DNA from: Eubacteriales bacterium
GTDB taxonomy: Bacteria > Bacillota > Clostridia > Oscillospirales > CAG-272
Reading direction: 5' to 3'
DNA length: 64,000 nt
Assembly: GCA_045588145.1 (NCBI GenBank)
Contig: JAZNDS010000038.1
Span: forward strand, 882 to 64,881
Numbering within the stretch: position 1 is the stretch's first letter; each line of letters opens with the position of its first letter. Below are positions 32,101-62,723 of the stretch, piece by piece. Under the pieces are notes generated by a model. That model was not told where the DNA came from. It worked only from the letters and a program-made list of their open reading frames with translations, and searched no databases. The position numbers were made by a program, and so were the translations under genes.

Positions 32101-33128
32101 AGAACATCATCATCATGCGCAACCCGAACGAATGCGCGAACGCGGGTCTTTCGGGAGGAGACGAGGCACTCAACGAATCCTTCTCCGGCGCCTCGGACCG
32201 TATCCATCAGTCCGCCCTCTTCTATTACGCCTGGTCGGATAACGGCTATATCCAGGGCAACAACCCGCGCCGCTATATCTTCAGCTATAACGAGGCGAAG
32301 GAGGCAGGGCTGCTTGGAGAGGACGATATGCAGAAGTTCGTGGACGCCATCGGGATCAACGGCCGAGCCTCCTTCTATCAGGCCGAGCACGGCGGCGAAA
32401 GCTGGATGAACGAATGCCGCAAGCAGATCAGCATGTACCTGGAAAGCTACGACCGCGAGGCCTACACAAGCCGCTTCCCGGGGTATATCAACTCGCTTTA
32501 CAGCCTGAAGATGATCGTCGAGATGTACGAAACGACCGAGGATTATCACATCCGCTACTTCTACATGCCCGCCGAGCTTTCGAACATGACCCACACCTTC
32601 AAGCTCCCCGAAGGGACGCTTGTGACCATTCCTACTTATCAATATAAGGAAAACAACGTCATAAAGACCGTGCCGCAGCGCACCGTCACCCCCGAAGAGG
32701 TGGGCAGCGAATGGGTGCTTACCCTCACCTACGAGGAGATCGCCTCGATCGAGCGGATGGAGCGTGCCCCCTGCAACAGCGTGATCTCGAACAACGTGAT
32801 CCTCGGCGGCACCCCGGCCGAGCTGAATAAGGACGGCCAGCCGGTCGGCACCGACGTAGACGAAAGCAAGACCATCGTCGTTGCCGAAACGAAGGGCTTT
32901 GACATTCAGGCCTCCACCATACAGGAGAACAACTTCCTCTACTTCGTTCCCTCCGATATCGTGGCCTCTCTTGAGGATTACGACTATACGATCGACGACG
33001 GCACATGGGATTGGATCGAGCGGACGATGAACATGGGAGAGGGCTTCCGTGACGGCTTTATGCCGATGTTCGAAGCGACCTTCGGTCTTTCCGACAAAAA
33101 ATTCGACTATTTCCAATACGACGACTGA
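29160..33128 (+). CDS. Large surface lipoprotein with right-handed parallel beta-helix region, paralog B
   Basis: Lipobox LPLAAC followed by a Thr/Pro-rich linker. Long colinear identity blocks with paralog A, for example GWQIRVINEKD, NSAAGRNT, IPGEWFYDIETGI and EKMERAPCN/ERMERAPCN. Confidence 0.85.
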   Translation: MKKALFRLLALALTLGMLLPLAACTPSTPPDATTTTPPPTTTGPLVTTDPHRTDPGVLSFAAIGDLADYSIVIAESAEDGVIEAAQALSALLLEKTGVSVAVKSDAVAYGESVPTDTKEILFGATNRAESFDTLRCNDFRIEKRGGRIVMAGGSKEALSALVEELSGVDAFFQNGVLMAPLAAYDFCDAYAIETLLLGGTDVSKYTIVRDSGHADTARHLQEKIREWTGHVLPIVTEHGKETVYEILIGYIERDGATYPTDESFSVKQVGTKLLLGGTAEYAGYFATLHFLNTYILSAPTASTLSVAVREEVKRFSPDLTGVTNMPAFTDFRGDYSLEVSAETVFERFLLAKAELPDEMTVLERVDIKNYPFSEKKAVYVNASKGDDANDGLSPETAFETIARALKYMEEKKGGVIYVMGGVYELEAPLSILGGHAGTPTCPLFIKAYGDKEATLTSNKQWADYDSGAWQVVDYETDPVAARIPERVKESGDDIYYSTLADLGLTKSDIAEISKSSPNPRLSVGGAAYTLAQFPNNTDNTLDWFYFTHTYEMGSVTNIQSPLYHQWLSYCGTAGISPSQTIGWQIRVINEKDDAKYKNSEGECTAQEMADELTSWVNTGNIWCYGNLYAGWENGYYNLSVNEEGIQNWHYGPNGERLLGGWRNDANGITKTVYTRNGTASEQTGYYFLKSKQPCSYGCAPGSNSAAGRNTLYFYNAIEALDIPGEWFYDIETGIVYLYPTDEFFGGAIEYAGAGSFPLIEAAQTSYVVVDGLTFNGSNSHGASFTKCDHITVQNCTFSNTKSNNLYQTNCTNFSLIYNDFSLSQGAMVSFGASNYDTSRPNLSVTNNYVQNNVFHDSAPFRDTGLTFGGSHVVVSHNFFHNTTIHTGYAIESIVEYNRFDGGSKTTTDGGMIYFSTYGTRGNHVRNNLMHRFNASGKGVYFDTETSGCYAYNNIISTMEGKTQSIMRPWYSSTGNGNVCFENIIIMRNPNECANAGLSGGDEALNESFSGASDRIHQSALFYYAWSDNGYIQGNNPRRYIFSYNEAKEAGLLGEDDMQKFVDAIGINGRASFYQAEHGGESWMNECRKQISMYLESYDREAYTSRFPGYINSLYSLKMIVEMYETTEDYHIRYFYMPAELSNMTHTFKLPEGTLVTIPTYQYKENNVIKTVPQRTVTPEEVGSEWVLTLTYEEIASIERMERAPCNSVISNNVILGGTPAELNKDGQPVGTDVDESKTIVVAETKGFDIQASTIQENNFLYFVPSDIVASLEDYDYTIDDGTWDWIERTMNMGEGFRDGFMPMFEATFGLSDKKFDYFQYDD

Positions 33129-33138
33129 CAAAAAGCAA

Positions 33139-33170
33139 AAAAGAGCAGAACCGCGGTTCTGCTCTTTTTT
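33139..33170 (+). terminator. Rho-independent terminator
   Basis: AGAGCAGAACC-gc-GGTTCTGCTCT followed by TTTTTT. Confidence 0.8.
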
Positions 33171-33530: not shown

Positions 33531-34195
33531 ACCGTAGGGGCGAGCTTTGCTCGTCCGTTTTAAACGGTAAGCGACACACGACGCCGACAGGTTAGCAAGC
33601 AAAAGCGGCAACGCCGTAGAACCCTACGGCGATTTGAGCGAGTCGAACGACAACCGTAGGGGCGAGCATTGCTCGTCCGTTTTAAACGGTAAGCGACACA
33701 CGACGCCGACAGGTTAGCAAGCGAGGGGGGGATGGCATAGATGACCTATGTCAAGCCCCCTCGTCGCAGCTTTAACGAAGATCTCGAATAAAAGAAATTT
33801 CTGTAAGACGAGGCGTAAGGGTGCAAAAGAGGCGACGACGTAGAAGCCTACGGCGATTTGAGTGAACCGAGCGACAACGAAGTACTTGAGTAGAAGAAAT
33901 TTTGCCGGGCGAGGCAAAGCAAGCGAGGGGGGCGATGGCATAGATGACCTATGTCAAGCCCCCCTCGTCAAAGCCTTAACGAAGATCTCGAATAAAAGAA
34001 ATTTCTGTAAGACGAGGCGTAAGGGTGCAAAAGCGGCAACGCCGTAGAACCCTACGGCGATTTGAGTGAACCGAGCGACAACGAAGTACTTGAGTAGAAG
34101 AAATTTTGCCGGGCGAGACAAAGCGAGCGCGGGTGGTGAAGGCATAGATGACCTATGTCAAGCCCCCCTCGTCGCAGCTTTAACGAAGCATCGCG
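33531..34195. repeat. Mosaic/tandem repeat block: 68-bp unit repeated twice, then about 2.3 copies of a ~204-bp unit
   Basis: GGCATAGATGACCTATGTCAAGCC recurs at 33734, 33937 and 34141. The block 33531-33600 is near-identical to 33653-33722. AAAAGCGGCAACGCCGTAGAACCCTACGGCGATTTGAG occurs at 33601 and 34030. Confidence 0.85.
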
Positions 34196-41701: not shown

Positions 41702-42145
41702 GTGAAAAACAAAGAAGCCTACGGGCGGCTGGTCAAGAAGCGGGCGGCCTGCTCCCCGGTTCTGAAAAACGGCCTTGCCGCCTTCTCTGTCGGGGGCTTG
41801 ATCTGCCTTTTCGGCGCCCTTTTGAAATCGCTGTACACGGCCCTTGGGGCAGAGGAGGAGATCGCGGGGATCCTTGTGAGCGTTTCGCTGATCTTTCTCT
41901 CGGCGCTCCTGACCGCGCTGGATCTTTACGACGGGATCGCCCGTTACGCGGGGGGCGGCACGCTCGTGCCCGTGACGGGCTTTGCCAACGCGGTCGTTTC
42001 CCCCGCCTTGGATACCAAAAGCGAGGGGCTTTTGTTCGGCGTCGGCACCAAGATCTTTACGGTGGCGGGCCCTGTGATCCTTTTCGGGATCCTTTCGGGG
42101 GCGATCTACGGGGTGCTGTATTTCCTTTCGGGGGTAACGCTATGA
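41702..42145 (+). CDS. spoVAC: Stage V sporulation protein AC
   Basis: VPVTGFANAV...KSEGLLFGVGTKIF matches the conserved SpoVAC core. GTG start with an AAGGAGA RBS. Confidence 0.9.
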   Translation: MKNKEAYGRLVKKRAACSPVLKNGLAAFSVGGLICLFGALLKSLYTALGAEEEIAGILVSVSLIFLSALLTALDLYDGIARYAGGGTLVPVTGFANAVVSPALDTKSEGLLFGVGTKIFTVAGPVILFGILSGAIYGVLYFLSGVTL

Positions 42146-43149
42146 AGCGGCTGCTTTCGCTTTCCTCTCCCGCCTTTTTTCATTCCTTCGCCGCCGTTGG
42201 GGGGAAGGAGGAAAGAAGGGGTCGCTTTGGGGAATGCTTTGATTTTTGCGCCGCGGACGACCGCTTCGGCGCCGAAACCTTTGAAAAGGCCGAGGGGCAG
42301 ATGGAGGCGCAATGCCTTTCCTTTGCCCTGAAAAAGGGGGGACTTACCGAAAGAGAGCTTTCGCTTCTTCTGGCGGGGGATCTTCAAAACCAGTGCGAGG
42401 CCACCTCGCATGGACTCTCCCCCTTTTCTCTCCCGTATCTTGGGCTGTACGGTGCCTGCTCCACCGCCATAGAGGGGCTGGGCCTTGGTGCCCTTTTGCT
42501 GCAAGCGGAGCCCTCTCTTTCACGGCTGGCCGTGGTAAGCGGCAGCCACAACTCGGCGGCCGAGCGGCAGTTCCGCACCCCGCTTGAATACGGCGGTCAG
42601 CGTACCCCCACCGCCCAATGGACGGCAACCGCCGCGGGGGCTTTTATCCTTTCCCACCGGGGAGAGGGGCCGCGGATCGGCGCCGCCCTTTTCGGGCGAT
42701 GCGTCGACGGGGGGATCCGCGACGCCTCCAACATGGGGGCCGCCATGGCCCCCCCCGCCGCCGATACCCTGCTTGCCTATTTTCGGGAAAGCGGCGACAG
42801 CCCCACCGATTACGACGCGATCGTGACGGGGGACCTCGGGCAGGAGGGCTCCTCGCTTCTTTCGATCCTTCTTGAAAGAGAGGGGCTTTCGCTTGGCGGG
42901 CGGCATCTCGACTGCGGGTGCCTGCTTTACGACGAAAGCATACAGGACGTGCATGCGGGGGCCTCGGGCTGCGGGTGCATTGCCTCGCTTCTTGCCTGTC
43001 ACTTTCTGCCCGCGCTGCAAGCGGGAGAGCTGCGGCGGATCCTGGCTATCGGGACGGGGGCAATGATGAACCCCGCGGCGCTTTTGCAGGGCGACACCAT
43101 TCTGGGGGTCGCGCATCTTATACGGCTGGAGGGTGCTTATGCTGACTGA
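42142..43149 (+). CDS. spoVAD: Stage V sporulation protein AD
   Basis: 335 aa, thiolase-like, with LGLYGACST. Overlaps spoVAC by 4 nt. Confidence 0.88.
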   Translation: MKRLLSLSSPAFFHSFAAVGGKEERRGRFGECFDFCAADDRFGAETFEKAEGQMEAQCLSFALKKGGLTERELSLLLAGDLQNQCEATSHGLSPFSLPYLGLYGACSTAIEGLGLGALLLQAEPSLSRLAVVSGSHNSAAERQFRTPLEYGGQRTPTAQWTATAAGAFILSHRGEGPRIGAALFGRCVDGGIRDASNMGAAMAPPAADTLLAYFRESGDSPTDYDAIVTGDLGQEGSSLLSILLEREGLSLGGRHLDCGCLLYDESIQDVHAGASGCGCIASLLACHFLPALQAGELRRILAIGTGAMMNPAALLQGDTILGVAHLIRLEGAYAD

Positions 43150-43609: not shown

Positions 43610-43642
43610 CAAAAGAGCAGAATAAAAATTCTGCTCTTTTGT
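43610..43642. terminator. Bidirectional terminator (spoVA operon / GT2 gene)
   Basis: AGAGCAGAAT-aaaa-ATTCTGCTCT with flanking A and T runs. Confidence 0.8.
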
Positions 43643-44558: not shown

Positions 44559-45956
44559 ATGAAAAACGAATTACAGGAAATGACCGATGCGCTGCTTGGC
44601 CTTTTGCGTCAAAAGCGTACCGAAAGCATTTTTTCGGTCTGGTTCCGCGATCTTCGCCTTGAATCCCTGACAGGAAGCCGCGCGATCATCTCGATCCCCT
44701 CCGAATTCAAGCTTCCTCTTTTAGAGCTTCATTACCGCACGGTGATCACCGAATGTCTGGAGGCGGTGCTGGGCTTTCCCCTTTCGGTCAGCTTTATCGC
44801 GCGCGAGGAGGAAAGCGGGCAGGTCTATATCGCGCCCGAGCCCCGCGTTCATACCTTTACCGAAAACGACGAGCCCGAGGAGAAAAACGAGGTCAATATC
44901 AAGGATCTTGAAAACCCAAAGACCATCGTTGAAAAATATACCTTCGATAACTTTCTGGTAGCCGATTCCAACCGCTTCGCGCACGCGGCGTGCCTGGCGG
45001 TCGCGCATACCGCCTGCGCCGAGGGGGACGATGAGGAGAACCTTTACAATCCTCTCTTCATCTACGGGCGAAGCGGCCTTGGAAAGACCCATCTGCTTTA
45101 CGCCATCACCAACGAGATCAAGAAGAAGAACCCCAACGTAAAGATTATTTATAAAAAGGGAGAGGACTTCACGAACGAGCTGATCAGCGCGATGCGCGAC
45201 AAGAAGAACGAGCAGTTCAGGTCCTATTACCGCACGGCCGACGTTCTTCTGATCGACGATATCCAGTTTATCGCCGGGAAGGTGCAAACGCAGGAGGAAT
45301 TCTTCCACACCTTCTCCGCCCTTTACGAGGGGGGAAAGCAGATCATTCTGACATCGGACCGACCGCCGCGTGAGATCCAGCCGCTGCAGGACCGACTTCT
45401 GACCCGCTTTGAATGGGGACAGCTGGCCGATATCCAGCCCCCTTCGGCCGAGCTTCGGACCGCGATCATTTTAAAAAAATCCGCCGACGAAGGGGTGGTA
45501 TTCCCCGAGGATGCGGTGAAATTCCTTTCGGATTCCTTAACCGAGAACATCCGTCAGATCGAAGGGGCCATCCACCGTATCAAGGGAATCTCGATGATCT
45601 CCTCGACCCCAATCACCCTCGATATGTGCCGCCGCGCGATCGCCGATTTTCTGAAAAAGAAGAATTCGGCCACCGATACCGTCGAAAAGATCATCGCAGC
45701 GGTCTCCGCCAAATATAAGGTATCCAAGGAGGAGATCTGCGGAAAGAAGCGCAGCGCCGGCATTATGATGGCGCGCCACGTCTGCATCTATATGATCCGT
45801 GAGCTGACAGACCTTTCTCAATCCGCCATCGGCAATTATTTTGACCGTGACCATACGACAGTCCTGAATTCGATCCGTTATATTGAAAACGAACTGAAGA
45901 TCACCCCCTCTCTTGAATACGAGATCGAGGAAATGATCCGTAAGGTCAAGGAATAA
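44559..45956 (+). CDS. dnaA: Chromosomal replication initiator protein DnaA
   Basis: AAA+ GRSGLGKTHLL, LLIDDIQF, and the C-terminal DnaA-box binding domain DHTTVLNSIRYI. Confidence 0.97.
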   Translation: MKNELQEMTDALLGLLRQKRTESIFSVWFRDLRLESLTGSRAIISIPSEFKLPLLELHYRTVITECLEAVLGFPLSVSFIAREEESGQVYIAPEPRVHTFTENDEPEEKNEVNIKDLENPKTIVEKYTFDNFLVADSNRFAHAACLAVAHTACAEGDDEENLYNPLFIYGRSGLGKTHLLYAITNEIKKKNPNVKIIYKKGEDFTNELISAMRDKKNEQFRSYYRTADVLLIDDIQFIAGKVQTQEEFFHTFSALYEGGKQIILTSDRPPREIQPLQDRLLTRFEWGQLADIQPPSAELRTAIILKKSADEGVVFPEDAVKFLSDSLTENIRQIEGAIHRIKGISMISSTPITLDMCRRAIADFLKKKNSATDTVEKIIAAVSAKYKVSKEEICGKKRSAGIMMARHVCIYMIRELTDLSQSAIGNYFDRDHTTVLNSIRYIENELKITPSLEYEIEEMIRKVKE

Positions 45957-46218
45957 GTTTTCCACCTTTTTGTGTATTTTTCGGTTGATATCACGGTGGA
46001 AAATTCAAGAGAAAAAAGAAAGAATTTTTTTACACCTCTTTCCCTCTTTTTTATCCACCGATTGTTCACCGATAAAAGGGACAGCATCCCCCAAAAAAAA
46101 CCTTGTAAGACAAGCCCCTTCGGGTTTTCTACCTTTTCAACCGCCTCTACTGCTTCTACTGCTAATCCTCTTATTTTATTTTATTTTGTTTTGGTTTGAC
46201 CGACAGAAAGGAACCGCC
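45957..46218 (+). other. oriC-like region in the dnaA-dnaN spacer (DnaA boxes plus AT-rich unwinding candidate)
   Basis: TTTTCCACC at 45958, its inverted copy GGTGGAAAA at 45995, and TTATCCACC at 46051. AT-rich run TTATTTTATTTTATTTTGTTTTGGTTT at 46171-46197. Confidence 0.6.
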
Positions 46219-47370
46219 ATGAAAATCACCTTCTCCAAATCGCTTTTTCTCGATAAGCTTGCCCCCGCGATGGGGACTGTTTCCAACAAAAACACCATCT
46301 CCTCGATCGAAGGGGTGCTGATCGAAACCGTGGAGAACCGCCAGCTGAAGCTTACCACCTACGATATGAAAAAGGGAATGGTCTCGCTGCTTGACGCCGA
46401 GACGGTCGAGCGGGGCGGCAGCTATATCATCAACGCCTCCCGCCTTTTGCAGATCTTAAAGGTCATGCCCGAGGATATCGTATCCTTGGAGGTAGACGAT
46501 AAGCTGAACGTATCCATTTCGGCTGGGCAAAGCAATTTCTCTCTTTTTGCCCTGCGCGGCAGTGAATTTCCCAATATTCCTCTCTTAAGCGGAGAAAAGG
46601 GATTTGAGATCGAATCGGGTACGCTTCGCTCCATGATCAGCCGCGTGTTCCATTCGATCGCCGATCAGGATTCGCGCCAGGTCCTTTGCGGCGCCTACTT
46701 CAAGCTTTTTGACGGTCTTTTTGAGATCGTTTCCTGCGATAGCTTCACGCTTTCTCTTTGCCGTAAAAAATGCGATATCAAGGATATCGGGGTGGTGGAG
46801 AGCCAGGGCTTTGACTTCATCGTTCCCGGCCACGCGCTTTCCGAGCTTTTGCGTATCCTGCCCGAGGGAGAGGAAAAGATAAACGTGTATCTTACCCGTA
46901 AGCACGCGATCTTCCGCCTTGATGAGATGACCTTCTTTACCCGTCTTATCGACGAGGATTACATCGATTATAACCGCATCATTCCCAAGCAGCAGACCAT
47001 TTTCGCGACGCTTGACCGTGAAAGGATCTTAAAGGGGCTTGAGCGGGCGAACCTTGTGGCTGAGGAAAAGAGCCAAGGGAACCGCACGAGCTACGTGAAG
47101 CTGATCCTTTCGGGGGACAGCTTAACGCTGACCTCCTCCTCGATCTCGGGGAAGGTATTCGATGAAATGGAATGCACGCACGAGGGTGAGGATATTGAGA
47201 TCGGCTTTAACTGCCGGTATCTGACCAACAGCATCAAGGCGGCCGAGGGCGAAAGGATCAAAATGACCTTGAAGAGCCCCCGCCAGAGCATCACGATCGA
47301 GCCGATCGAGGAAAAGGAAGAGGAAATCTTCTTTTATATGGTCCTGCCGGTCCGTATGGCGGAAGAATGA
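46219..47370 (+). CDS. dnaN: DNA polymerase III beta sliding clamp
   Basis: MKITFSKSLFLDKL...SSIEGVLIE, 383 aa. Start trimmed from listed ORF 45970. Confidence 0.95.
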   Translation: MKITFSKSLFLDKLAPAMGTVSNKNTISSIEGVLIETVENRQLKLTTYDMKKGMVSLLDAETVERGGSYIINASRLLQILKVMPEDIVSLEVDDKLNVSISAGQSNFSLFALRGSEFPNIPLLSGEKGFEIESGTLRSMISRVFHSIADQDSRQVLCGAYFKLFDGLFEIVSCDSFTLSLCRKKCDIKDIGVVESQGFDFIVPGHALSELLRILPEGEEKINVYLTRKHAIFRLDEMTFFTRLIDEDYIDYNRIIPKQQTIFATLDRERILKGLERANLVAEEKSQGNRTSYVKLILSGDSLTLTSSSISGKVFDEMECTHEGEDIEIGFNCRYLTNSIKAAEGERIKMTLKSPRQSITIEPIEEKEEEIFFYMVLPVRMAEE

Positions 47371-48447
47371 CCGTAAAAAAGATAAAGGCGGTCGATTTTC
47401 GGAATATAGAGAGCTGCGAGGTCAGCTTTTCCGAGGGGGCCAACCTTTTGCTTGGCAACAACGCCGAGGGAAAGACCAATCTTTTGGAGGCGATCTATTA
47501 TTTTGCAAGGGGAAAAAGCTTTCGCGGCGCCACCGATCGTGAGCTTTGCCGCTTCGGCACCAAGGGCTATTTTATTGAGCTTACCTTTGTAGGCGGCGGG
47601 CGAGAGCAAACGCTTACCTACCGCTTTTACGAGGGAAGCAAGCAAAAGAAAAGAAACGGCGCGCCGATGGAAAAGATTTCCGAAATGCTGGGGCATTTCC
47701 GCGCGGTCCTTTTCTATCCCGAGCATTTGCAGCTGGTAAAGGGAAGCCCCGCGCTTCGGCGGGAGTTTCTGAATATCGCCATCTCGCAGATCGAGCCCTC
47801 GTACATTCCCTTATACGCCTCTTATCAGAAAATTCTGGATAACCGTAACGCGCTTTTGAAGATCGCCGGAAAGGGTGGATTTTTTGAGGAGGAGGAATAT
47901 AGGGTATGGAGCGAAAGGCTGGCAGACGCCGCTTCCTCAATCACGCTTTTCCGCTATCGCTATGTGGATAAGATCAAGGAAGAAGCCAAAAGCATTCTTT
48001 ATGAGCTTTCGGGAAAAAAAGAGGATTTATCTGTCTCTTATATTTCCGAAGCCCCCTTCGTAAGCAAGGAAGAAATAAAGAATTTTTACAAGGATCTGTT
48101 TTTATCGGATATAAGACGGGAGATCGCGGCGGGATTTACGGTTTTTGGCCCCCATCACGATGATCTTTCGCTTATAATAAACGGAAAAGGGGCCCGCGAG
48201 TTTGCCTCGCAGGGGCAGCAGCGCTCGATCTCGCTTGCCTTGAAGCTTGCCGAGGGGGAGGTCTCAAAAAAGGAATGCGGGGAATATCCCGTCTTCCTCT
48301 TTGACGACGTGATGAGCGAGCTGGATCCCTCCCGCCGTAATTTTCTTCTCTCTAAATTAGAGGATAGACAGCTGATCCTTACCGCGTGTGAGGACGGCGG
48401 CTTCCGTGAAAACGGCGCCTGCGTTATCAAGACCGAGGGGGGAAGCT

Positions 48448-48467
<20 letters not shown>
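47367..48467 (+). CDS. recF: DNA replication/repair protein RecF
   Basis: Walker A GNNAEGKTNLLEAI and signature SQGQQRS. ATGA overlap with dnaN. Confidence 0.95.
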
Positions 48468-50662
<2,195 letters not shown>

Positions 50663-50676
50663 GAAAGGAGAAGATC

Positions 50677-53229
50677 ATGGAGCATCATAAGATAGGTGAA
50701 GACATTTCCTTTCCCAATCAGAAGATCGAAAGCCGCTACATGGAAAAAGAGGTAAAGACCGCGTTCCTTGAATATTCGATGAGCGTTATTACCTCGCGCG
50801 CGCTTCCCGATGTAAGAGACGGTATGAAGCCCGGCCAGCGCCGCATCATGTACGCGATGTACGAGGATGGGCTGACCTACGATAAGCCCTTCCGCAAATC
50901 GGCAACGACGGTCGGTAACGTGCTTGGCCGTTACCATCCGCACGGAGACGCCGCGGTCTACGATACCATGGTACGCTTAGCGCAGGATTTCTCGCTTCGC
51001 TATCCGCTGGTGGACGGACACGGAAACTTCGGTAACGTAGACGGAGACGGCGCCGCCGCCTACCGTTACACCGAGGCCAGAATGTCGAAGATCGCCGATT
51101 ATATGATGAACGATATCGAGAAGAACGTCGTCGATTTCGTTCCCAACTACGATAACCGCTTAAAGGAGCCTACCGTCCTGCCCTCCCGCTTCCCGAACCT
51201 GCTTGTCAACGGCTCGGTGGGGATCGCCGTCGGTATGGCGACCAACATTCCCCCGCATAATCTGACCGAGGTCATCGACGGGACCATCTACCGTATGGAG
51301 AACCCCGATTGCTCGGTAGCCGATCTGATGAATTACATCAAGGGACCCGACTTCCCGACCAAGGGTATTATCTACGGAAGCCGCGGTATGTACGACGCCT
51401 ATACCACCGGTAAGGGGCGCGTGATCGTGCGTGCCCGCGCACGGGTAGAAGAGGAAAATCGGCGCATCGTTGTTACCGAAATCCCCTATATGGTAAACAA
51501 GAGTATGCTTGTTGCCGCCATGGCGGACCTTGTTAAGGACAAGAAGATCGAGGGGATCACCGATATCCGCGACGAGTCGGGACGCGCCGGGATGCGTATC
51601 GTCATCGAGTATAAGCGTGACGCCAACGGCGAGGTCATCTTAAATCAGCTGTATAAATACAGCCAGCTGCAAAGCACCTGCGCTGTCAATATGCTGGCGC
51701 TTGTTAACGGTGAGCCGAAAACGCTTTCGCTCCCCGCGATCCTTGATTCCTACATCGCCCACCAGGAGGATGTCATCACAAGGCGCTGCCGCTTCGAGCT
51801 GGAGAAGGCGCTTTCCGAGATGCATATCTACGAGGGGTATAAGACCGCCATCGACCATATCGACGAGGTGATCGAGATCATCCGCGCGAGCGCCTCGATC
51901 CCCGACGCGAAGGAAAAGCTTTCGGCCTCCTTCGGTCTTACCGACGCGCAGGCCCAGGCGATCGTCGAGATGACGCTCGGTAAGCTTTCGGGACTGGAAA
52001 GACAGAAGATCGAGGACCGCATCGAAAAGCTTTCGGCGAAGGTCAACGAGCTTACAGCGATCCTTGCCGACGAAGGAAAGGTCAAGGAGATCATCAAGGA
52101 GGAGCTGGAGGTCATTCGCGATAAGTTCGGCGACGAAAGAAGGACCGAGCTGATCGAGGCGACCGACGAGATCGACATTGAGGATCTGATCGAGCGGCAC
52201 ACCTGCGTGATCACGCTTTCGCACGGCGGCTACATCAAGCGCCAGCCCGCCTCGACCTATTCCGCCCAGCACAGAGGCGGCAAGGGCATCACGGGCATGA
52301 CCACCAAGGAAGAGGATTTTGTCGAGAACGTGCTTGTGGCGAACAGCCATGAGAACCTGCTCTTCTTCACCAACCTTGGGAAGGTCTATATGAAAAAGGC
52401 CTACCGCCTGCCCGAGGCCTCGCGTACCGCTAAGGGAAGCAACATCGTCAATATTCTGGAGATCGAGGAAGGGGAAAAGATCACCGCCATTATCCCGATC
52501 GCCGATTTTGAAGGAGAAGAGTTCCTGACGATGGTCACCCGCCGCGGCGTTATCAAGCGTACCCCCATTGCGGAATACGCCTACCAGCGTAAGGGCGGTA
52601 AGCGCGCCTTAACGCTGGACGAGGGAGACGAATTGCTGTATGTACGCCGCACGGTCGGTGAAGAGGAGCTGATGCTCGCCACGAGATCGGGTCTTGCGGT
52701 CCGCTTCTCGGAGGAGAACGCCCGCTCGATGGGACGTACCGCCCGCGGTGTCCGCGGCATCCGCCTCTCGGGAGACGATGAGGTCGTCGGGGTCGTGGTG
52801 GTAGACGAAAGCAAGCAGCTGCTTACCATCACCGAGAACGGCTTCGGCAAGCGGTGTCTCTTTGAGGATTTCCGCCTGATGAAGAACCGCGGCGGCCACG
52901 GCGTCACCTGCCATAAGATCAGCGAGAAGACGGGTGGCCTTGCCTCGATCGCCACGGTCAGTGAGGATGACGACTGCATGCTGATCACCGACGCGGGTGT
53001 CATTATCCGTACCCCCGTTTCGGGTATTCCGATCTATTCCCGCACGGCGGGCGGCGTGATCGTGATGCGCCTTAACGAGGGTGTGAAGGTCGTGACCTTC
53101 GCGCGCCTTGAGAAGGAAGAGGAGATCGAAAAGGAGGCCGCGGCCGCCGAGGAGGCGCAGGCCGGCGCCCCGAAGGCCGAGGAAGGCCCCGTCCCGCTGT
53201 CCGAAGAAAACGGAACCCTTGCCGAATAA
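50677..53229 (+). CDS. gyrA: DNA gyrase subunit A
   Basis: [24 protein letters not shown] and [10 protein letters not shown] (active-site Tyr region), with a C-terminal beta-pinwheel. Start at ATG 50677, which has an AAGGAG RBS. Confidence 0.96.
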
Positions 53230-56144: not shown

Positions 56145-56731
56145 TCGGCTATCGGTATATGGACGCCTCCCTTTATGGGGAGGAGGCCGATTTTCGCTGT
56201 GGGCTTTCGCTTCTTCCCGAGGCGCTTCACGCCTATGCCCTTGCCCCGAAGGAGAAAAACGCGCGCGCGCTTCGCTTGGCGGGCCTTGTGCTGCTGACCG
56301 TTCTTTATAACACCGAATGCGGCCACGCGCCGCTGCCCCCGATCGGCTTTTTTGAAAAGGGAAAGCCGTATTTTACCGAGGGCGAGCTTCATTTCAATAT
56401 TTCGCACAGCAAAGGGCTGGCCCTTTGCGCGCTTTCCGACCGCCCGATCGGGGTGGATATCGAGCCGATCAAGCAAGAATTTACCGAGAAGGAGGAGGGC
56501 ATCGCCCGCCGCTTTTTCACCGAGGGTGAGCGCCGCCTTTTGACTGCCGCCCCCGATAAGGGGGAGGCCTTCACCAAGATCTGGGTGCGGAAGGAAGCCC
56601 TCGCGAAGCAGAGCGGAGCGGGGGCGGCCGCCTTCTCCTCGACCGATACGACGGCGGCCCTTTTTTCGCACGAGGAGATCGTGACCGATAACGAAGGGGT
56701 GCGCTATTTCCTCGCGATTGCGGACAAATAA
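56141..56731 (+). CDS. Sfp-type 4'-phosphopantetheinyl transferase
   Basis: GKPYF...FNISHS...GVDIE...WVRKEALAK motifs. Confidence 0.88.
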   Translation: MIGYRYMDASLYGEEADFRCGLSLLPEALHAYALAPKEKNARALRLAGLVLLTVLYNTECGHAPLPPIGFFEKGKPYFTEGELHFNISHSKGLALCALSDRPIGVDIEPIKQEFTEKEEGIARRFFTEGERRLLTAAPDKGEAFTKIWVRKEALAKQSGAGAAAFSSTDTTAALFSHEEIVTDNEGVRYFLAIADK

Positions 56732-56796
56732 GCCAATAATGTAAAAGAAACTATATAAAAAGAGCAGAACCAAGGTTCTGCTCTTTTTGTGCTCGC
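56649..56796 (+). repeat. Left 148-bp direct repeat (PPTase last 27 codons, spacer and terminator)
   Basis: Aligns with 59805..59952 with 5 mismatches and no gaps. Confidence 0.9.
56757..56790. terminator. Terminator (PPTase on +, TasA-like gene on -)
   Basis: AGAGCAGAAC-caag-GTTCTGCTCT followed by TTTTT, with an A-run upstream. Confidence 0.8.
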
Positions 56797-56807
56797 ATGG
56801 AATAAGC

Positions 56808-58703
56808 TTACTTATTTGCGTTATATTTAACAGTAACGCCGTCATGTGCAGGGTTGCCGTAAACACCCTGTCCGCCGCCGTAAAGCTGGTCAAACGGACA
56901 AGGCACGAAGTGGTCTTCGCCTTCGTTATGAACGTGATTGTCGTCTACCACCTCATACCCTTCGGCATCGGTGGGGTGGCCGTATCTCGGATTAGAATAG
57001 GCAGAGTTGCTTATACCCGCCTGAACCCTTACGTAAGGCCAGCTCTTGCCCGCAAATTCGCAATACGTATAATTTGCCCAATCACCGTAAAGAACAGTCA
57101 CGTTCTCACAGGAAAGCTGCGGCGCATCGGCAAATGTGGTTCCGTCGATGTTGACCGTTTTACCCGTGTTGCCGATAAGCATGCCCGCGCGGCGGTATGC
57201 ATGCCACTGATAGCTTGAGGTTATGTCGTTATAAGCGTCAATTCTGCATGCGACAACGCAATCCTTGAGTAAGATCTCCGCGCTTTCACTGACACCGCCG
57301 ATAACGCCGCCGATGGCGTTATCGAAGTCGCCCCACTGCGCGGCAATATTGGTAGATTCGTCTATAACGCAGTTGCTGTATACGTGGTTACCCGAAGCCC
57401 AACCGACGATACCGCCCGCATAATACTGATAATCGGCTACGTTCGCGTTCTTAACCGTGATGTTCTCAAAGTGGCAGTTGCCGGATGCAACCGCTGCGAT
57501 CGTTCCGCAGATGGCACTTTCTCCGGAGATATCGGCACCGTCTATCGTAAGATTTTTTATCGTTGCGTTCTCAATCGCGCCGAAGAGCCCAAGCCCGAGA
57601 TCCCCGTAGTAATAGCCGTTATCAAGAGCCCAGGTATTCTGACTGAGGTTGTAGATCGTATGACCGTTCCCGTCAAACGTACCCGTAAACGCCCTGTCGT
57701 GTCTGTACGAGCCTATGGGATCGAAGCAGTTGCCTTCGTTATAGAGGTTTACGTCCGCATCGAGGATAACGGTCTTCGGGCTTTCATCATCAAAAAAGAA
57801 GCTGTTAAGCTGATCTGCGGTTATCGTCGAACGAGCAGAAGACAGGTCGCTGTCTTCAACGCTGCCGTCTATCATTTTGGAAAAAGCGGCAAAGGCCTCT
57901 GCGGAAGCTATGTTGACCTCGGTCGCGTTCGGGTCTACCCATGAGAAGTCAAGCGTGCCGTCCCATGCGTCGGGAATCGTCGGAGCCTCGGGAAATTCGG
58001 AATTTATGTCGTAAATAAAACCGTCGCCGTCATTTTCATAGGACATCTGCGTTGCCAAAAGCGACACAGCGAAGTCTATGGACAGTCCGCCGTCAACGTT
58101 GAATTCGTTATCGTTTTCGGTAGGAATCCAGCAAAGACCGATTTCATACGTTATGGATTCACCGGGAAGAAGGAAGGCTTCAACCGTAAATCCATCACCG
58201 AAGGAAGGCATATTGGCAGGGTCATAAGCAGGAATGGCGGAGTCAATTTGCTGATTTTCAAGCGTTTCGTCCTCCATGACCGTATCGGTGCCGGTGTTTT
58301 TGTTGCGCGCGATAGCATAGACGGATAAAGCGTCTGCAAGCGTTTTGCCCGACGGAGTCTCGGTTGCGTTTGCGTAAATGATACTCAATTGATATTTAAG
58401 CGCAAGCATACCGTTATTGACTACCTCAAAGCGGCCGCCGGCAAAGGCGCCGGGCTCCCAAACAATGGGGTCACCGTTGATATCCATAAAGATTTTGGTA
58501 TCCTCGTTAACCTCTTCGGGGGTGCCGTTATAGGAGTTGGTATAAATCAAATCAACGTCCAAATCTCCCGACTGGATTTGGTTTATTCCGCTTGAAGAAG
58601 AATCGGTAAACCAAGCAAAGGTCGTGCCAACAAGCATAGTAAAGCAAACGGCGATTGCAATTACGCTGCTAAAAAGGGGGATATTCCTGTTTCTGAATTT
58701 CAT
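56808..58703 (-). CDS. Secreted TasA/camelysin-like (Peptidase_M73-like) N-domain fused to a GLUG/beta-helix-like C-terminal region
   Basis: SipW-class signal region LVGTTFAWFTDSS, then SGDLDVDL...WEPGAFAGGRFEVVNNGMLALKY...FAVSLLATQ (compare TasA GTLDL and FEATQ). The C-terminal half has repeats GLFGAIENATIKNLTI, AGGIVGW and IGGVIGG. Confidence 0.8.
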   Translation of the reverse strand: MKFRNRNIPLFSSVIAIAVCFTMLVGTTFAWFTDSSSSGINQIQSGDLDVDLIYTNSYNGTPEEVNEDTKIFMDINGDPIVWEPGAFAGGRFEVVNNGMLALKYQLSIIYANATETPSGKTLADALSVYAIARNKNTGTDTVMEDETLENQQIDSAIPAYDPANMPSFGDGFTVEAFLLPGESITYEIGLCWIPTENDNEFNVDGGLSIDFAVSLLATQMSYENDGDGFIYDINSEFPEAPTIPDAWDGTLDFSWVDPNATEVNIASAEAFAAFSKMIDGSVEDSDLSSARSTITADQLNSFFFDDESPKTVILDADVNLYNEGNCFDPIGSYRHDRAFTGTFDGNGHTIYNLSQNTWALDNGYYYGDLGLGLFGAIENATIKNLTIDGADISGESAICGTIAAVASGNCHFENITVKNANVADYQYYAGGIVGWASGNHVYSNCVIDESTNIAAQWGDFDNAIGGVIGGVSESAEILLKDCVVACRIDAYNDITSSYQWHAYRRAGMLIGNTGKTVNIDGTTFADAPQLSCENVTVLYGDWANYTYCEFAGKSWPYVRVQAGISNSAYSNPRYGHPTDAEGYEVVDDNHVHNEGEDHFVPCPFDQLYGGGQGVYGNPAHDGVTVKYNANK

Positions 58704-58767
58704 TTTTTTACCTCTTTTAAATATTTTTTGTTTTTTAATAATTTCTTGCTGATTTTGGCGATAATCC

Positions 58768-59346
58768 TTATTTGCCCAACGCTTTTCCGATCTGCATGCT
58801 GAAAAACATGAGCATCAACACGGTAGGGATCAAAATACTGATAAAGTAACCGCGCGGGGTCTTTAAAAACGCAAAAAGACTGCCAACGTCGGGTATTTTA
58901 AAGAGATACTTGCCCATAATGTTCTCGGGCTTAACCGGTGTCGTGTCGTTGACGCCCGTGTTTATTCCGTAGGTAACGAAGCCGATGATGTTTCCGTCAT
59001 GACCGTATCTTATTTCTCTTATCTTGTGCGTTACGGTTTTTCCGTAGCTATCGGGATTATAAGAAAAGAAGGTTATAACATCGCCTGCTTTAAGCGCGGT
59101 AGCATCTTCAACCCTTCTTATTATTATAAGGTCACCCGCATCGAAAAAGATCGGTTCGTTTTCGCTTGATGAAGATTGGCTCATAGAGTCGCTTGCCACG
59201 ATTAAGAGCTGAAACCCCAAAACCTCCCTGCTGTTCTTCTCTCCGCTTAAAGAGGCAAAAATCATGATCAGCGCCATAGCAACCGAGAAAAAGCAGCATA
59301 GCCAAGCAAAAAAGGATATTATTTGTTCAAAAAATGTTCTCTTCAA
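58768..59346 (-). CDS. Signal peptidase I, SipW (ER/archaeal) type
   Basis: N-terminal TM, catalytic SDSM motif, GDVITF, TVTHKI, and a C-terminal TM. TTG start with a GAAGGA RBS. Confidence 0.8.
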   Translation of the reverse strand: MKRTFFEQIISFFAWLCCFFSVAMALIMIFASLSGEKNSREVLGFQLLIVASDSMSQSSSSENEPIFFDAGDLIIIRRVEDATALKAGDVITFFSYNPDSYGKTVTHKIREIRYGHDGNIIGFVTYGINTGVNDTTPVKPENIMGKYLFKIPDVGSLFAFLKTPRGYFISILIPTVLMLMFFSMQIGKALGK

Positions 59347-59441
59347 CGTTTATTCCTTCTCAACCCCCTGCCAAAAGTAACAAGCAAAAAAAGCATGCAC
59401 GTTGAGTTACAAATTAACTCATAGCACAAATGATAGCACGA

Positions 59442-59473
59442 TTTTAACTAAAAGTCAACACGTTTAGTTAAAA
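59442..59473. promoter_or_regulatory. Candidate operator: 11-bp perfect inverted repeat overlapping the XRE promoter
   Basis: TTTTAACTAAA-N10-TTTAGTTAAAA. TATAAT at 59478-59483. A second inverted repeat GAGTTA-N5-TAACTC lies at 59404-59420. Confidence 0.5.
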
Positions 59474-59520
59474 CCGCTATAATATTGTTGTAATTGTTTA
59501 AAGGAAAAGAGTGATGCGGA

Positions 59521-59799
59521 ATGGATTTTGGTGAAAAGATACGAAATGCAAGAGAAGATATGGACTTATCCCAACGAGATATGGCGAGTCTTATTCCAAT
59601 GAATCAATCGAATTACTCTAAAATAGAGCGCAATGTTCAGGAGCCTAACCTTGAACAGCTTCGCCGCATTTGCCAAATACTCAACATAGATCCCCGCTAC
59701 CTTTTAAACCTCGGTGATTACGTATCTATTACCGAGGCCGATATGAAGCTTTTGAAGGAAACAAAAGCTTTTATTCAGGCGCATAAAAACGAAAAATAG
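59521..59799 (+). CDS. XRE-family HTH regulator with short helical C-terminal tail (SinR-like architecture)
   Basis: LSQRDMASLIPMNQSNYSKIERN helix-turn-helix. 92 aa. Divergent from the sipW and TasA-like genes. Confidence 0.8.
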   Translation: MDFGEKIRNAREDMDLSQRDMASLIPMNQSNYSKIERNVQEPNLEQLRRICQILNIDPRYLLNLGDYVSITEADMKLLKETKAFIQAHKNEK

Positions 59800-59804
59800 C
59801 AGAG

Positions 59805-59952
59805 CGACGGCGGCCCTTTTTTCGCACGAGGAGATTGTGACCGATAACGAAGGGATGCGCTATTTTCTCGCGATTGCGGATAAATAAGCCAATAATGTAA
59901 AAGAAACTATATAAAAAGAGCAGAACCAAGGTTCTGCTCTTTTTGTGTTCGC
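59805..59952 (+). repeat. Right 148-bp direct repeat (orphan copy of PPTase 3' end plus terminator)
   Basis: Same as 56649..56796 with 5 transitions, all toward A/T. Confidence 0.9.
59913..59946 (+). terminator. Duplicated terminator copy
   Basis: AGAGCAGAAC-caag-GTTCTGCTCT followed by TTTTT. Confidence 0.75.
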
Positions 59953-60039
59953 GCGCGGCTTCGCCGCCTTTTCGTAAGGGGGCGGCTTCCCCAAAGGGGC
60001 GCCGCGGGGCGGAAAAGAGGCAAAAATCGGCGGTCACCC

Positions 60040-60068
60040 TTGACAAATCGGCCCCTTTATTATATAAT
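60040..60068 (+). promoter_or_regulatory. Consensus sigma-A promoter for alaS
   Basis: TTGACA-N17-TATAAT exactly. The leader is about 50 nt and has no T-box motif. Confidence 0.65.
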
Positions 60069-60119
60069 CATTTAGAATAAATAAAGATATAATAGCCGAT
60101 AGGCTTTGGAGGAAAAAGG

Positions 60120-62723
60120 ATGAAATGGACGTCTCTTAACGATCTGCGCGAGGCCTTTCTTTCGTTTTTCGAAAGCAAGGGGCATTTGCGCCTTCCCAGC
60201 TTTTCGCTGGTCCCGCAGGGGGATAGATCCCTGCTTCTCATCAATTCGGGCATGGCGCCGATGAAGAAGTATTTTACGGGGGAGGTCACGCCCCCCTCGA
60301 CCCGTGTCGCCACCTGCCAGAAGTGCATCCGCACGCCTGACCTTGACCGTGTCGGCCACACCGCGCGCCACGGCACCTTCTTCGAGATGCTCGGCAACTT
60401 CTCCTTCGGCGACTACTTTAAGGAGGAGGCCATCCCCTTCGCGTGGGAATTCTTAACCGAATGCCTTGCGATCCCCGGCTCTCTTTTGTGGCCCTCGATC
60501 TACGAAAATGACGAGGAGGCCTATAAGATCTGGACCGAGAAGATCGGCGTCGATCCCAAGAAGGTCGTGCGCCTCGGCAAGGCCGATAACTTCTGGGAGC
60601 ATGGCGAAGGCCCCTGCGGTCCCTGCTCCGAGATCTATTTTGACCGCGGCGAAAAATACGGCTGCGGCTCGCCCGATTGCCGCCCGGGGTGCGATTGCGA
60701 CCGCTATATGGAGATCTGGAACAACGTATTCTCCCAGTTCAACAACGACGGCAAGGGCAATTATACCGAGCTTGCCCAGAAGAATATCGATACGGGCATG
60801 GGGCTTGAGCGTCTGGCCTGCGTTCTGCAGGGGGTCGACAACCTCTTTGAGGTCGACTCGGTGCGTAAGATCCTCGATTCGGTGTGCGCCGTTGCCGGGA
60901 AGACCTACGGCGTCGATAAGGAGGACGATATTTCGATCCGCGTGGTGACCGACCACGTTAGAAGCGCCACCTTTATGATCGCGGACGGGGTCATTCCCTC
61001 GAACGAGGGCAGGGGGTACGTTCTGCGCCGTATCCTTCGCCGCGCCGCCCGCCACGGCAAGCTGTTGGGCATTGACCGTATGTTCCTTTGCGAGATGTGC
61101 GAGGTCGCCATCGGCGAGAGCCGTGACGCCTATCCCGAGCTTTCGACCAAGCATGACTATATTTTGGCGGTCGTTGAAAAGGAAGAGGAGCGCTTCCACG
61201 CGACGCTTGACAGCGGCCTGCGTATGCTCTCCGAGATGATGGAGAAGGCCGAAGAAAAGGCGCTTTCGGGCGAGGACTGCTTTAAGCTGTACGATACCTA
61301 CGGCTTTCCCTTTGATCTGACGCGCGAGATCGCCGAGGAGCGAGGCTTCAGCACCGATGAGGAGGCCTTCCGCGCGCTGATGAACGAGCAGCGTGCCCGC
61401 GCCCGCGCCGCCCGCAACACGGCGGGGGGCTGGAGCGAATCCTCGAAAACCGCCCTTTCGGGCCTTCCGAAGACCGAATTCCTCGGCTATACCGAAAACG
61501 AGTGCGAGGCGAAGCTTCTCGCCATTCTGGTGGAGGGCGAAAGCGTTTCGGCCGTTTCCGAGGGAGAGGCGACCCTGATCTTTGACCGCACCGTCTTTTA
61601 CGGAGAGGGCGGCGGCCAGGTGGGCGACACCGGCCTTATCAAAAAGGGCGAGCTTTCCTTCCGTGTTTCGGATACCAAAAAGAGCGACGGCGTATACCTG
61701 CATGAGCTTAGCGATATTTCGGGGCTGATCGAGGTAGGGGACACGCTCTCGCTTTCGATCGACGAAGCACGCCGCGCGGCCATTCGCCGCAACCATTCCT
61801 CGGCGCACCTGTTGCAGGCCGCGCTCCGCTCGGTGCTTGGCACGCACGTTGAGCAGGCGGGCTCGTACGTCGATGAAAAGGAAATGCGCTTTGACTTTAC
61901 CCACTTCTCGGCCATGACGAAGGAAGAGATCGCCGCGGTCGAAGCGCTCGTGAACCGATATATTCTCGCGGCCGAGGAGGCCGAAACCGTGGAGACTGAC
62001 CCCGAAAGCGCGAAAAAGATGGGCGCTATGGCTCTCTTTAACGAGAAGTACGGGGACCGTGTCCGCGTGGTGAAGATCGGCAGCCACTCGGTCGAGCTTT
62101 GCGGCGGCACGCACGTGCATAACAGCGGCGCCATCGGCCTTTTCCGCATCCTGTCCGAAAGCTCGGTCGCGGCGGGGGTCCGCCGTATCACCGCCTTGAC
62201 CGGCGCGAACGTCCTTGCCTATCTTGATAAGAAGGAAGAGACCGTGGCGGCCGTCGCCAAGGAATTGAAGGCCAATAACGTATCCGATCTTCTCCATCGG
62301 GCCGAGGCTGTCAGCGCCGAGCTGAAGGAGACCCGCCGCCGCCTGGAGAGCGCCGAGGCGAAGCTTTCCGAGGCGAAGCTTTCCACGCTTCTTTCCGAGG
62401 CAAGGACGGTAGGCACCCTTCGCCTGCTTACGGCAAGGCTGGATATGAGCGCCGATGCCGCCCGCAGCCTTTGCGACGGCATCAAGGAAAAATACGCCGA
62501 TATGGTGGCGGTCTTTGCCGCCGTCAACGGCGATAAGCTCAATTTCGTTGCCTGCTGCGGCAAGGACGCTGTGAAGGCGGGCGCGCACGCGGGAAAGATC
62601 CTTTCCGCGGTCAGCGCGATCTGCGGCGGCAAGGGAGGCGGTCGGCCCGACAGCGCCATGAGCGGCGGCCGTGACCTTTCCAAAATAGAGGAAGCTCTGG
62701 CGGCAGTCGAGGGGCTTTTGTAA
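60120..62723 (+). CDS. alaS: Alanine--tRNA ligase
   Basis: RHGTFFEMLGNFSFGDYFK, the editing-domain HSSAHLL...CGGTHV Zn motif, and a C-terminal DHHA1-like GGKGGGRPD. Confidence 0.96.
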   Translation: MKWTSLNDLREAFLSFFESKGHLRLPSFSLVPQGDRSLLLINSGMAPMKKYFTGEVTPPSTRVATCQKCIRTPDLDRVGHTARHGTFFEMLGNFSFGDYFKEEAIPFAWEFLTECLAIPGSLLWPSIYENDEEAYKIWTEKIGVDPKKVVRLGKADNFWEHGEGPCGPCSEIYFDRGEKYGCGSPDCRPGCDCDRYMEIWNNVFSQFNNDGKGNYTELAQKNIDTGMGLERLACVLQGVDNLFEVDSVRKILDSVCAVAGKTYGVDKEDDISIRVVTDHVRSATFMIADGVIPSNEGRGYVLRRILRRAARHGKLLGIDRMFLCEMCEVAIGESRDAYPELSTKHDYILAVVEKEEERFHATLDSGLRMLSEMMEKAEEKALSGEDCFKLYDTYGFPFDLTREIAEERGFSTDEEAFRALMNEQRARARAARNTAGGWSESSKTALSGLPKTEFLGYTENECEAKLLAILVEGESVSAVSEGEATLIFDRTVFYGEGGGQVGDTGLIKKGELSFRVSDTKKSDGVYLHELSDISGLIEVGDTLSLSIDEARRAAIRRNHSSAHLLQAALRSVLGTHVEQAGSYVDEKEMRFDFTHFSAMTKEEIAAVEALVNRYILAAEEAETVETDPESAKKMGAMALFNEKYGDRVRVVKIGSHSVELCGGTHVHNSGAIGLFRILSESSVAAGVRRITALTGANVLAYLDKKEETVAAVAKELKANNVSDLLHRAEAVSAELKETRRRLESAEAKLSEAKLSTLLSEARTVGTLRLLTARLDMSADAARSLCDGIKEKYADMVAVFAAVNGDKLNFVACCGKDAVKAGAHAGKILSAVSAICGGKGGGRPDSAMSGGRDLSKIEEALAAVEGLL

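Follow-up and report, generated by a model that had tools for sequence, protein, structure and literature searches.

In Bacillus subtilis, the tapA-sipW-tasA operon encodes a SipW-type signal peptidase beside its substrate and, with sinR/slrR adjacent, forms a biofilm matrix fibre system. Here we describe a three-gene cassette that resembles this Bacillus sinR and sipW-tasA system and is inserted between the genes for a 4'-phosphopantetheinyl transferase (PPTase) and alaS in an Eubacteriales bacterium (Clostridia, Oscillospirales, CAG-272). It lies in a stretch of 64,000 nucleotides of assembly GCA_045588145.1, contig JAZNDS010000038.1, hereafter the window, which is the part of this genome that the analysis covers. 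A structure of the TasA fibre is available (8aur; PMC9674648). The cassette is bounded by long direct repeats of the PPTase 3' end, an arrangement that recalls several described structures. Integrase islands in the 3' ends of genes or tRNAs carry repeats that duplicate the gene end around cargo of foreign composition and leave the gene intact; core-flanked accessory "islets" are swapped by homologous recombination; and in homology-facilitated illegitimate recombination (HFIR), or in Campbell-type single-crossover insertion, foreign DNA with one-sided homology enters with no dedicated recombinase and gives the product order gene end, insert, gene end. PMC6382021 (citing de Vries & Wackernagel 2002 and Prudhomme et al. 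2002) treats HFIR as an established route in naturally transformable bacteria, described for Acinetobacter, Streptococcus pneumoniae and Pseudomonas stutzeri (references therein).

Our conclusion is that the repeats in the window are a young secondary recombination scar and not the attachment sites of a self-integrating element. The repeat search recovers the two copies (Table 1) as one family of 148 nt, aligned without gaps and 96.6% identical, which bears out the five-mismatch alignment made earlier by a reader given the DNA letters and no database (the sequence-only reading). The copies stand 3156 nt apart, start to start, and enclose 3,008 bp (56797-59804). Other direct repeats in the surrounding 10 kb reach at most 35 nt at 74% identity, so that this pair is far beyond chance. 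As had also been claimed, the left copy is the real end of the PPTase gene and the right copy is an orphan: it lacks a start codon, does not share the reading frame of the helix-turn-helix (HTH) gene ending at 59799, begins 5 nt past the stop codon of that gene and ends 8 nt past the terminator hairpin. The scar is a single illegitimate (non-homologous) join that connects the sequence just past the regulator stop codon to PPTase codon ~170, with a visible microhomology of 1 nt (C at 56649/59805); a blastn alignment of the window to L002, a relative carrying the same cassette, ends at 59798. The 96.6% identity of the copies compares with a neutral-site divergence of ~30-35% between the window and L002; unless gene conversion has intervened, the repeat therefore arose long after the cassette had taken up residence in the genus.

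This reading is carried by a genus-level comparison set of four genomes (L002, L003, L004 and L005+L010) that share the gyrA-rnj-PPTase synteny, the PPTase orthologues of L002-L004 being 74-79% identical to that of the window at the amino-acid level. In L003 the PPTase gene is followed by an aromatic-amino-acid (aro) operon (pheA, aroC, aroA, aroB, tyrA, aroF) and alaS; in L004 by a small insert in the terminator loop, a DUF559 gene, the aro operon and alaS; in L002 by the cassette, the DUF559 gene and aro; and in L005+L010 by the cassette and aro. The six-gene operon stands ahead of alaS in all four relatives and is missing from the window alone, where the whole 64 kb holds no aro gene. The repeat is likewise unique to the window, so that the one genome with the repeat is also the one without the right-hand flank. 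In L002 and L005+L010 the cassette occupies the same site with no PPTase-end copy on its right, and in L002 and L005 its start lies past the entire PPTase terminator and outside the gene; the natural left boundary of the cassette is thus downstream of the terminator. These same-site cassettes speak against an element that targets the PPTase 3' end, as the sequence-only reading had proposed. The cassette-free allele that it had anticipated does exist: in L003 the intact terminator leads directly to the next core gene, with the pheA stop codon ~25 nt on, and L004 is also without the cassette. Since the terminator at 56757-56788 is present at the cassette-free L003 site as well, it is core sequence. 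The HTH gene of the L002 and L005 cassettes ends in its own terminator, unlike that of the window, where the right-hand terminator copy (59913-59944) would now terminate the HTH gene and insulate alaS.

Beyond the genus, the three-gene module lies between unrelated genes in L006-L009, lower-GC genomes of other genera, with protein identities to the window of 83-85% for the HTH regulator, 59-63% for the SipW domain and 77-79% for the large protein (for the regulator, L002, L006 and L008 span 83-86%). No flanking repeats of at least 30 nt surround the module in L006 or L008, and no recombinase lies beside it in L002, L005 or L006-L009. Linkage of the cargo to a tyrosine or serine recombinase, for which the sequence-only reading had proposed a search, was not seen in the nine related loci examined. 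The block is nevertheless accessory, patchy among relatives and compositionally foreign, as had been supposed: cargo GC is 0.37-0.52 against 0.58-0.62 in the flanks, and GC at third codon positions (GC3) 0.41-0.57 against 0.73-0.78.

The cassette has also passed between species. Between L002 and L005 it is 96.9% identical over 3157 bp, the corresponding values being 83.3% for the aro operon and 85.8% for the upstream core; at four-fold sites, identity is 0.91-1.0 in the cassette genes and 0.58-0.72 in the core genes. The high-identity tract ends where flanking homology ends, its right end coinciding with the end of a 75-nt segment of the pheA 3' end. This excess of cassette identity over the 83-86% of the flanks argues that the cassette moves by homologous recombination in conserved flanks. 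Within the genus, it would spread by ordinary homologous recombination, with homology in the PPTase terminator to its left and in the pheA 3' end to its right; the module is mobile over evolutionary time and has no recombinase of its own. The window shares in this history: compared with L002 at four-fold sites, its 631-aa gene is 0.78, its sipW 0.58 and its HTH gene 0.46 identical, where the core stands at 0.64-0.71, a mosaic that places the cassette alleles off the core tree. In its conserved tract edges, as in its identity of 97% beside flanking core of 83-86%, the L002/L005 cassette behaves as a core-flanked islet; the window differs in that one flank is missing.

How the scar formed is a question of order: each scenario needs one illegitimate join and one deletion in the aro region, and the scenarios differ in which came first and in whether one or two genomes took part. 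The route that we prefer, and consider the most likely, though we hold it tentatively, is a one-sided homologous import in trans. The window lineage would first have lost the aro operon, so that the right-hand homology was gone and a PPTase-terminator-alaS arrangement remained. Cassette DNA from a very close relative would then have entered this aro-less, cassette-free chromosome, anchored by homology in or upstream of the PPTase gene, while its other end became linked, by an illegitimate join, to a point within the resident PPTase 3' end. HFIR could achieve this; so, with the same result, could the single-crossover (Campbell-type) insertion of a circle formed from the PPTase end plus the cassette. 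The product would read gene, donor end, cassette, displaced native end, alaS, and the displaced end, being dead, would have decayed by five G/C-to-A/T transitions. An illegitimate join is needed on this route because aro loss removed the right-hand homology used in L002 and L005; with one flank missing, the usual double crossover cannot give the present structure. The in-trans route fits the mosaic divergence and uses the recombination seen acting on the cassette, and its layout has a precedent in the DUF559 gene at the pheA 3' end of L002 and L004, which also reads "gene end - insert - gene end". It preserves, in a weaker and still unproven form, the idea of the sequence-only reading that a PPTase end arrived with the incoming DNA and took the place of the native one.

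Several points weigh against the import route. The layout of the window fits an HFIR product, but the microhomology visible at its junction, 1 nt, is shorter than the 3-10 nt typical for HFIR; collections searched for a conspecific genome yielded none, so that neither the proposed empty, aro-less recipient allele nor a donor allele was seen. The window differs from described HFIR in being a single natural product, whose route we infer; experimental HFIR, moreover, usually deletes recipient DNA, whereas here a 148-nt duplication was left. The HFIR precedents come from transformable bacteria, and the route would require that this organism takes up DNA, by competence or in another way. The apparent youth of the repeat could be due to gene conversion between its copies. 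Finally, the all-AT-ward differences of the orphan fit copies that were identical at the outset, which an in-cis duplication would give equally well.

Those differences deserve a closer look, as they had been taken for the mark of a functional donor. The description itself is confirmed: four of the five mismatches lie in the coding part, three being synonymous, at 56680 (C left, T right; ATC/ATT), 56710 (C left, T right; TTC/TTT) and 56725 (C left, T right; GAC/GAT), and one conservative, at 56699 (G left, A right; GTG/ATG, V to M), while the fifth, at 56792 (C left, T right), is non-coding; in all five the left copy has G/C and the right copy A/T. However, 20 of the 46 possible G/C-to-A/T transitions in the coding stretch of the repeat (43%) are synonymous, and under AT-biased decay the probability of at least 3 synonymous changes among 4 is P = 0.22. 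The pattern is therefore no sign that the orphan was under purifying selection in a separate functional gene, and the argument for a homologous donor PPTase drawn from it is not significant. If a dead copy simply decays in a GC3-rich genome, its changes should run uniformly AT-ward, as they do here. Polarising the five mismatches with L002-L004 as outgroups gives two in favour of the left state as the ancestral one, one in favour of the right, one ambiguous and one unalignable; at ~75% identity, these outgroups are too distant for the purpose.

The strongest competitor keeps everything in one genome, and we regard it as a real but less probable alternative. Its ancestor would have had the order PPTase, cassette with its own terminator, aro, alaS, as in L002 and L005; 56649-59804 would have been duplicated in tandem, and a deletion of ~10 kb would have taken the second cassette copy and the aro operon, leaving only the 148-nt start of the second unit. 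The join of regulator end to PPTase codon ~170 is exactly what tandem duplication of a 3156-bp unit gives, the junction of 59804 to the equivalent of 56649 fits, the cassette and its L002 counterpart run collinear as far as the HTH stop codon, a single deletion accounts for the absent aro operon, and the copies start identical, all five differences then being AT-ward decay of the dead one. But only 148 of the 3156 nt are present in two copies, so that a further deletion has to be assumed; two rare events and an unstable intermediate are required, and the left end of the deletion must by chance fall within ~10 nt past the terminator. Duplication in cis also leaves unexplained why sipW and the HTH gene are more, and the 631-aa gene less, diverged than the core, and it makes no use of the demonstrable swapping of the cassette between lineages. 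A reading in which the repeats are attL and attR of an integrative element, with its attachment site in the PPTase 3' end and a tyrosine or serine recombinase supplied in trans or lost, is much harder to sustain and in our view very improbable. It would account for direct repeats that duplicate a gene 3' end around AT-rich cargo and for the existence of a cassette-free allele. Yet profile searches (Pfam, NCBIfam) of the three cargo ORFs found no integrase, transposase or relaxase, which upholds the description of the cassette as recombinase-less (they are a SipW peptidase, a SipW substrate and an HTH protein); no recombinase family appeared among the 30 Pfam-scanned long ORFs upstream of gyrB, nor, as said, beside the module elsewhere. 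Unlike integrase islands, the cassette lacks the repeat in sister species and in other contexts, and its natural boundary is intergenic, after a terminator; the 148-nt repeat spans an arbitrary codon to just past the terminator, and its limits show no inverted-repeat or core-type structure. Homologues were absent from viral contigs, plasmids and phages except for distant domain matches. Three of four marks of an integrase island (a recombinase, att repeats everywhere, insertion inside the gene) are thus lacking, and the element-free allele is the one found. With no tRNA gene and no Rfam family in the window, this is also not a tRNA-type integration site.

That the arrangement is an artefact, a contig chimera of co-occurring strains in which the second PPTase end does not truly adjoin the cassette, seems to us the least credible of these alternatives. 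In its favour, the sequence comes from one 74-kb NCBI contig, the database has no conspecific, and the relatives, which are metagenome-assembled genomes, have contigs that break at the PPTase terminator. Against it, 59804/59805 joins sequences without a shared k-mer, which a graph assembler would join only from reads containing the junction; the five differing positions indicate that the two copies were resolved separately. It is also conceivable, although we think it unlikely, that "gene end - insert - gene end" reflects a recurrent, lineage-wide form of recombinase-independent gene mobility, with the DUF559 insert as a second case. In such a cycle the 148-nt repeats would loop the cassette out as a circle with one PPTase end, and circles or tandem-junction fragments could be passed on and enter naive genomes by a single homologous crossover. 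A transposon or insertion sequence was rejected as a source, there being no transposase, no terminal inverted repeats (the only inverted repeat at 56797/59804 is that of the two terminator copies) and a duplication of 148 nt where target-site duplications measure 2-14 bp. Gene conversion seeded by dispersed terminator hairpins was likewise set aside as the source of the repeat, for it cannot account for 83 nt of PPTase coding sequence.

Further searches bear on how isolated the window is. Exact-protein look-ups with its PPTase, its 631-aa protein and its SipW gene call returned no other contig; in a scanned genome collection the PPTase had no relative other than one at 33%; and scans of JGI metagenomes with a genus-level terminator pattern, or with the window-specific filler sequence described below (a marker of an empty, aro-less allele), returned nothing. 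In protein clusters the alaS and SipW products are singletons and the gyrB cluster has one other member, at 98%, which is genus level. The nearest SipW allele (71%, L012) sits on a 1.9-kb contig that ends 91 nt past the HTH gene, with only a repeat resembling a miniature inverted-repeat transposable element (MITE) there.

The features of the locus are collected in Table 1.

Table 1. The PPTase-alaS interval of the window: genes, repeat copies and regulatory features
Feature	Position	Strand	Remarks
PPTase (4'-phosphopantetheinyl transferase), core flank, 196 aa	56141-56731	+	Pfam ACPS 5.9e-15
Left repeat copy	56649-56796	+	Functional PPTase 3' end: last 83 nt including stop, plus 65 nt with terminator
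Bidirectional intrinsic terminator hairpin	56757-56788		Perfect hairpin, AAAAAGAGCAGAACCAAGGTTCTGCTCTTTTT; predicted to serve the convergent PPTase and 631-aa genes
Cargo gene 1, 631-aa secreted protein, SipW-dependent (TasA/camelysin-type) signal peptide	56808-58703	-	NCBIfam TIGR04088
Cargo gene 2, SipW/archaeal-type signal peptidase I	58768-59346	-	TIGR02228, 70 bits vs cut-off 51.85
Divergent promoter region, two palindromes	59404-59483		59404-59420; 59442-59473 = TTTTAACTAAAA-N9-TTTAGTTAAAA
Cargo gene 3, 92-aa XRE/Cro-C1-type HTH regulator	59521-59799	+	Pfam HTH_19 6.1e-13, HTH_3 7.3e-12
Illegitimate junction	59800-59805		Sister-cassette homology stops at the HTH stop; PPTase-derived sequence from 59805
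Right repeat copy	59805-59952	+	Orphan PPTase 3' end plus terminator copy at 59913-59944
GC-rich 59-nt filler	59953-60011		At the place of the relatives' 6.3-kb aro operon (with or without DUF559 element)
alaS promoter and alaS, core flank	60040-62723	+	Promoter 60040-60068, 12/12 consensus match; gene 60120-62723

The cargo is an accessory secretion module that is complete in itself and probably represses its own expression; it is composed of an XRE repressor, a SipW-type peptidase and a TasA-like/beta-helix surface or matrix protein. The large protein matches TIGR04088 over residues 16-48 (25.2 bits against a cut-off of 19) and has weak Pfam matches to M26_N (GLUG / M26_N-type, in its middle part) and to M73, the latter below cut-off. 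By sequence it matches no solved structure in the PDB. Its AlphaFold model (46 homologues, pLDDT 81) predicts a beta-sandwich N-terminal domain followed by a long C-terminal beta-helix, and a fold search of the PDB with this model gave two significant matches, to 3n6z (a putative IgA1-protease domain) and to the TasA fibre 8aur, both with probability 1.0; for the latter, Foldseek reports E 4.5e-4 and a TM(target) of 0.38. More than 2,500 homologues are in the database, none of its relatives lies on viral contigs, and plasmids and phages gave only distant GLUG-domain matches. The peptidase also matches the Bacillus SipW equivalog (E 2.9e-23), below that model's own cut-off. We place its start at TTG 59346, although the database gene call uses an ATG 69 nt downstream, because the longer ORF aligns over its full length with the 199-aa orthologue of L002. 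In other genera (L006, 7863-9014; L008, 7453-8817), the SipW gene of the module encodes 383-454 aa, with an N-terminal SipW domain followed by a long C-terminal extension. The two palindromes of the divergent promoter region are the presumed operators of the HTH regulator: they overlap both predicted -35 boxes, promoter-like sites being found on both strands, and both are unchanged in four genomes with differing contexts.

The likeness to the tapA-sipW-tasA system is as follows: a SipW-type signal peptidase is encoded beside its likely substrate, the substrate has a SipW-dependent signal peptide (…GTTFAWFTD…) and a predicted fold with a hit to 8aur, and a divergent XRE-family regulator with palindromic putative operators takes the place of sinR/slrR. 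There are also key differences: (i), the substrate is a 631-aa protein with a large C-terminal beta-helix (GLUG / M26_N-like), unlike TasA, and a fibre role for it is suggested by fold likeness; (ii), the module has no TapA-like gene; (iii), the regulator has 92 aa and matches the SlrR model weakly (E 0.0056).

The window carries dnaA, dnaN, recF, gyrB, gyrA, a small HTH gene, an 88-aa ORF, RNase J, PPTase, the cassette and alaS, with the dnaA-dnaN-recF-gyrB-gyrA cluster at 44559-53229; at ~11 kb from dnaA, the cassette site lies near the replication origin, in a highly conserved region. Further upstream, spoVAC/spoVAD (41702-43149) suggest a spore-forming organism of Clostridia type. Three very long ORFs at 21793-25680 (+), 26176-28935 (-) and 29160-33128 (+) encode 1295, 919 and 1322 aa; their GC3 (0.78-0.81) is like that of the core, and Pfam gave no hit for them at E <= 1e-5. 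The 59-nt filler that follows the right repeat copy matched nothing significantly, either within the window or in the other loci examined, and is probably the scar of the aro-operon deletion; homology to L003 and L004 resumes at 60012-60019. The filler holds a short hairpin (59955-59967) and GGGGCG-type motifs reminiscent of repetitive extragenic palindromic (REP)-like elements.

Several small repeats occur around these sites. The terminator stem AAAGAGCAGAA-N6-TTCTGCTCTTT is found four times in the window (33140-33167, 43612-43639, 56759-56786 and 59915-59942) where none is expected by chance, and therefore forms a dispersed terminator-hairpin family; REP-like CGTAGGGGCGAGC motifs lie near copies of it, at 33533, 33655 and 43588. 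A MITE-like repeat with hairpin ends (…GTTCTCCGCTAAGGAGAAC…, …GAGAACAAATCGGTTTTA…GAAATGTCCTCTC…) is present in L004 (3407-~3620), L010 (4470-4517), L005 (9075-9239) and L012 (1-90); in two sister genomes it interrupts the loop of the PPTase terminator hairpin, where it breaks the contigs, and part of it lies 3' of the HTH gene in a more distant cassette. The DUF559 (endonuclease-like) gene (L002, 13782-14494; L004, 3650-4312), absent from the window, is bracketed by inverted hairpins CTCCCTTGTG(T/C)AAAGGGAG, and its insert has a direct copy of the final ~75 nt of pheA on either side; the two copies are 87% identical in L002 and in L004 share 47 nt at 96% with a 10-nt gap. The orphan-hairpin junction of this insert is identical in L002 and L004, and L011 has a remnant (~11000-11160) that keeps the hairpins without the gene. 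The insert may be a small selfish element, its layout being that of the repeat in the window.

In its parts the finding is fairly ordinary, both the cargo and the recombination structure being of known kinds. For the prediction of genomic islands it matters that AT-rich cargo between long direct repeats of a gene 3' end can mimic the footprint of an integrase and yet, as here, be a secondary scar. Selection may have kept the cargo, as suggested by inference from the persistence of deletion-prone 148-nt repeats to 3.4% divergence. The cassette belongs to a large family of uncharacterised modules, with more than 2,500 database members, from uncultured Clostridia, in which SipW is combined with a TasA-like/beta-helix protein and an XRE regulator. 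The module has the look of a portable fibre system for the surface or matrix, one that carries its own repressor-operator switch.

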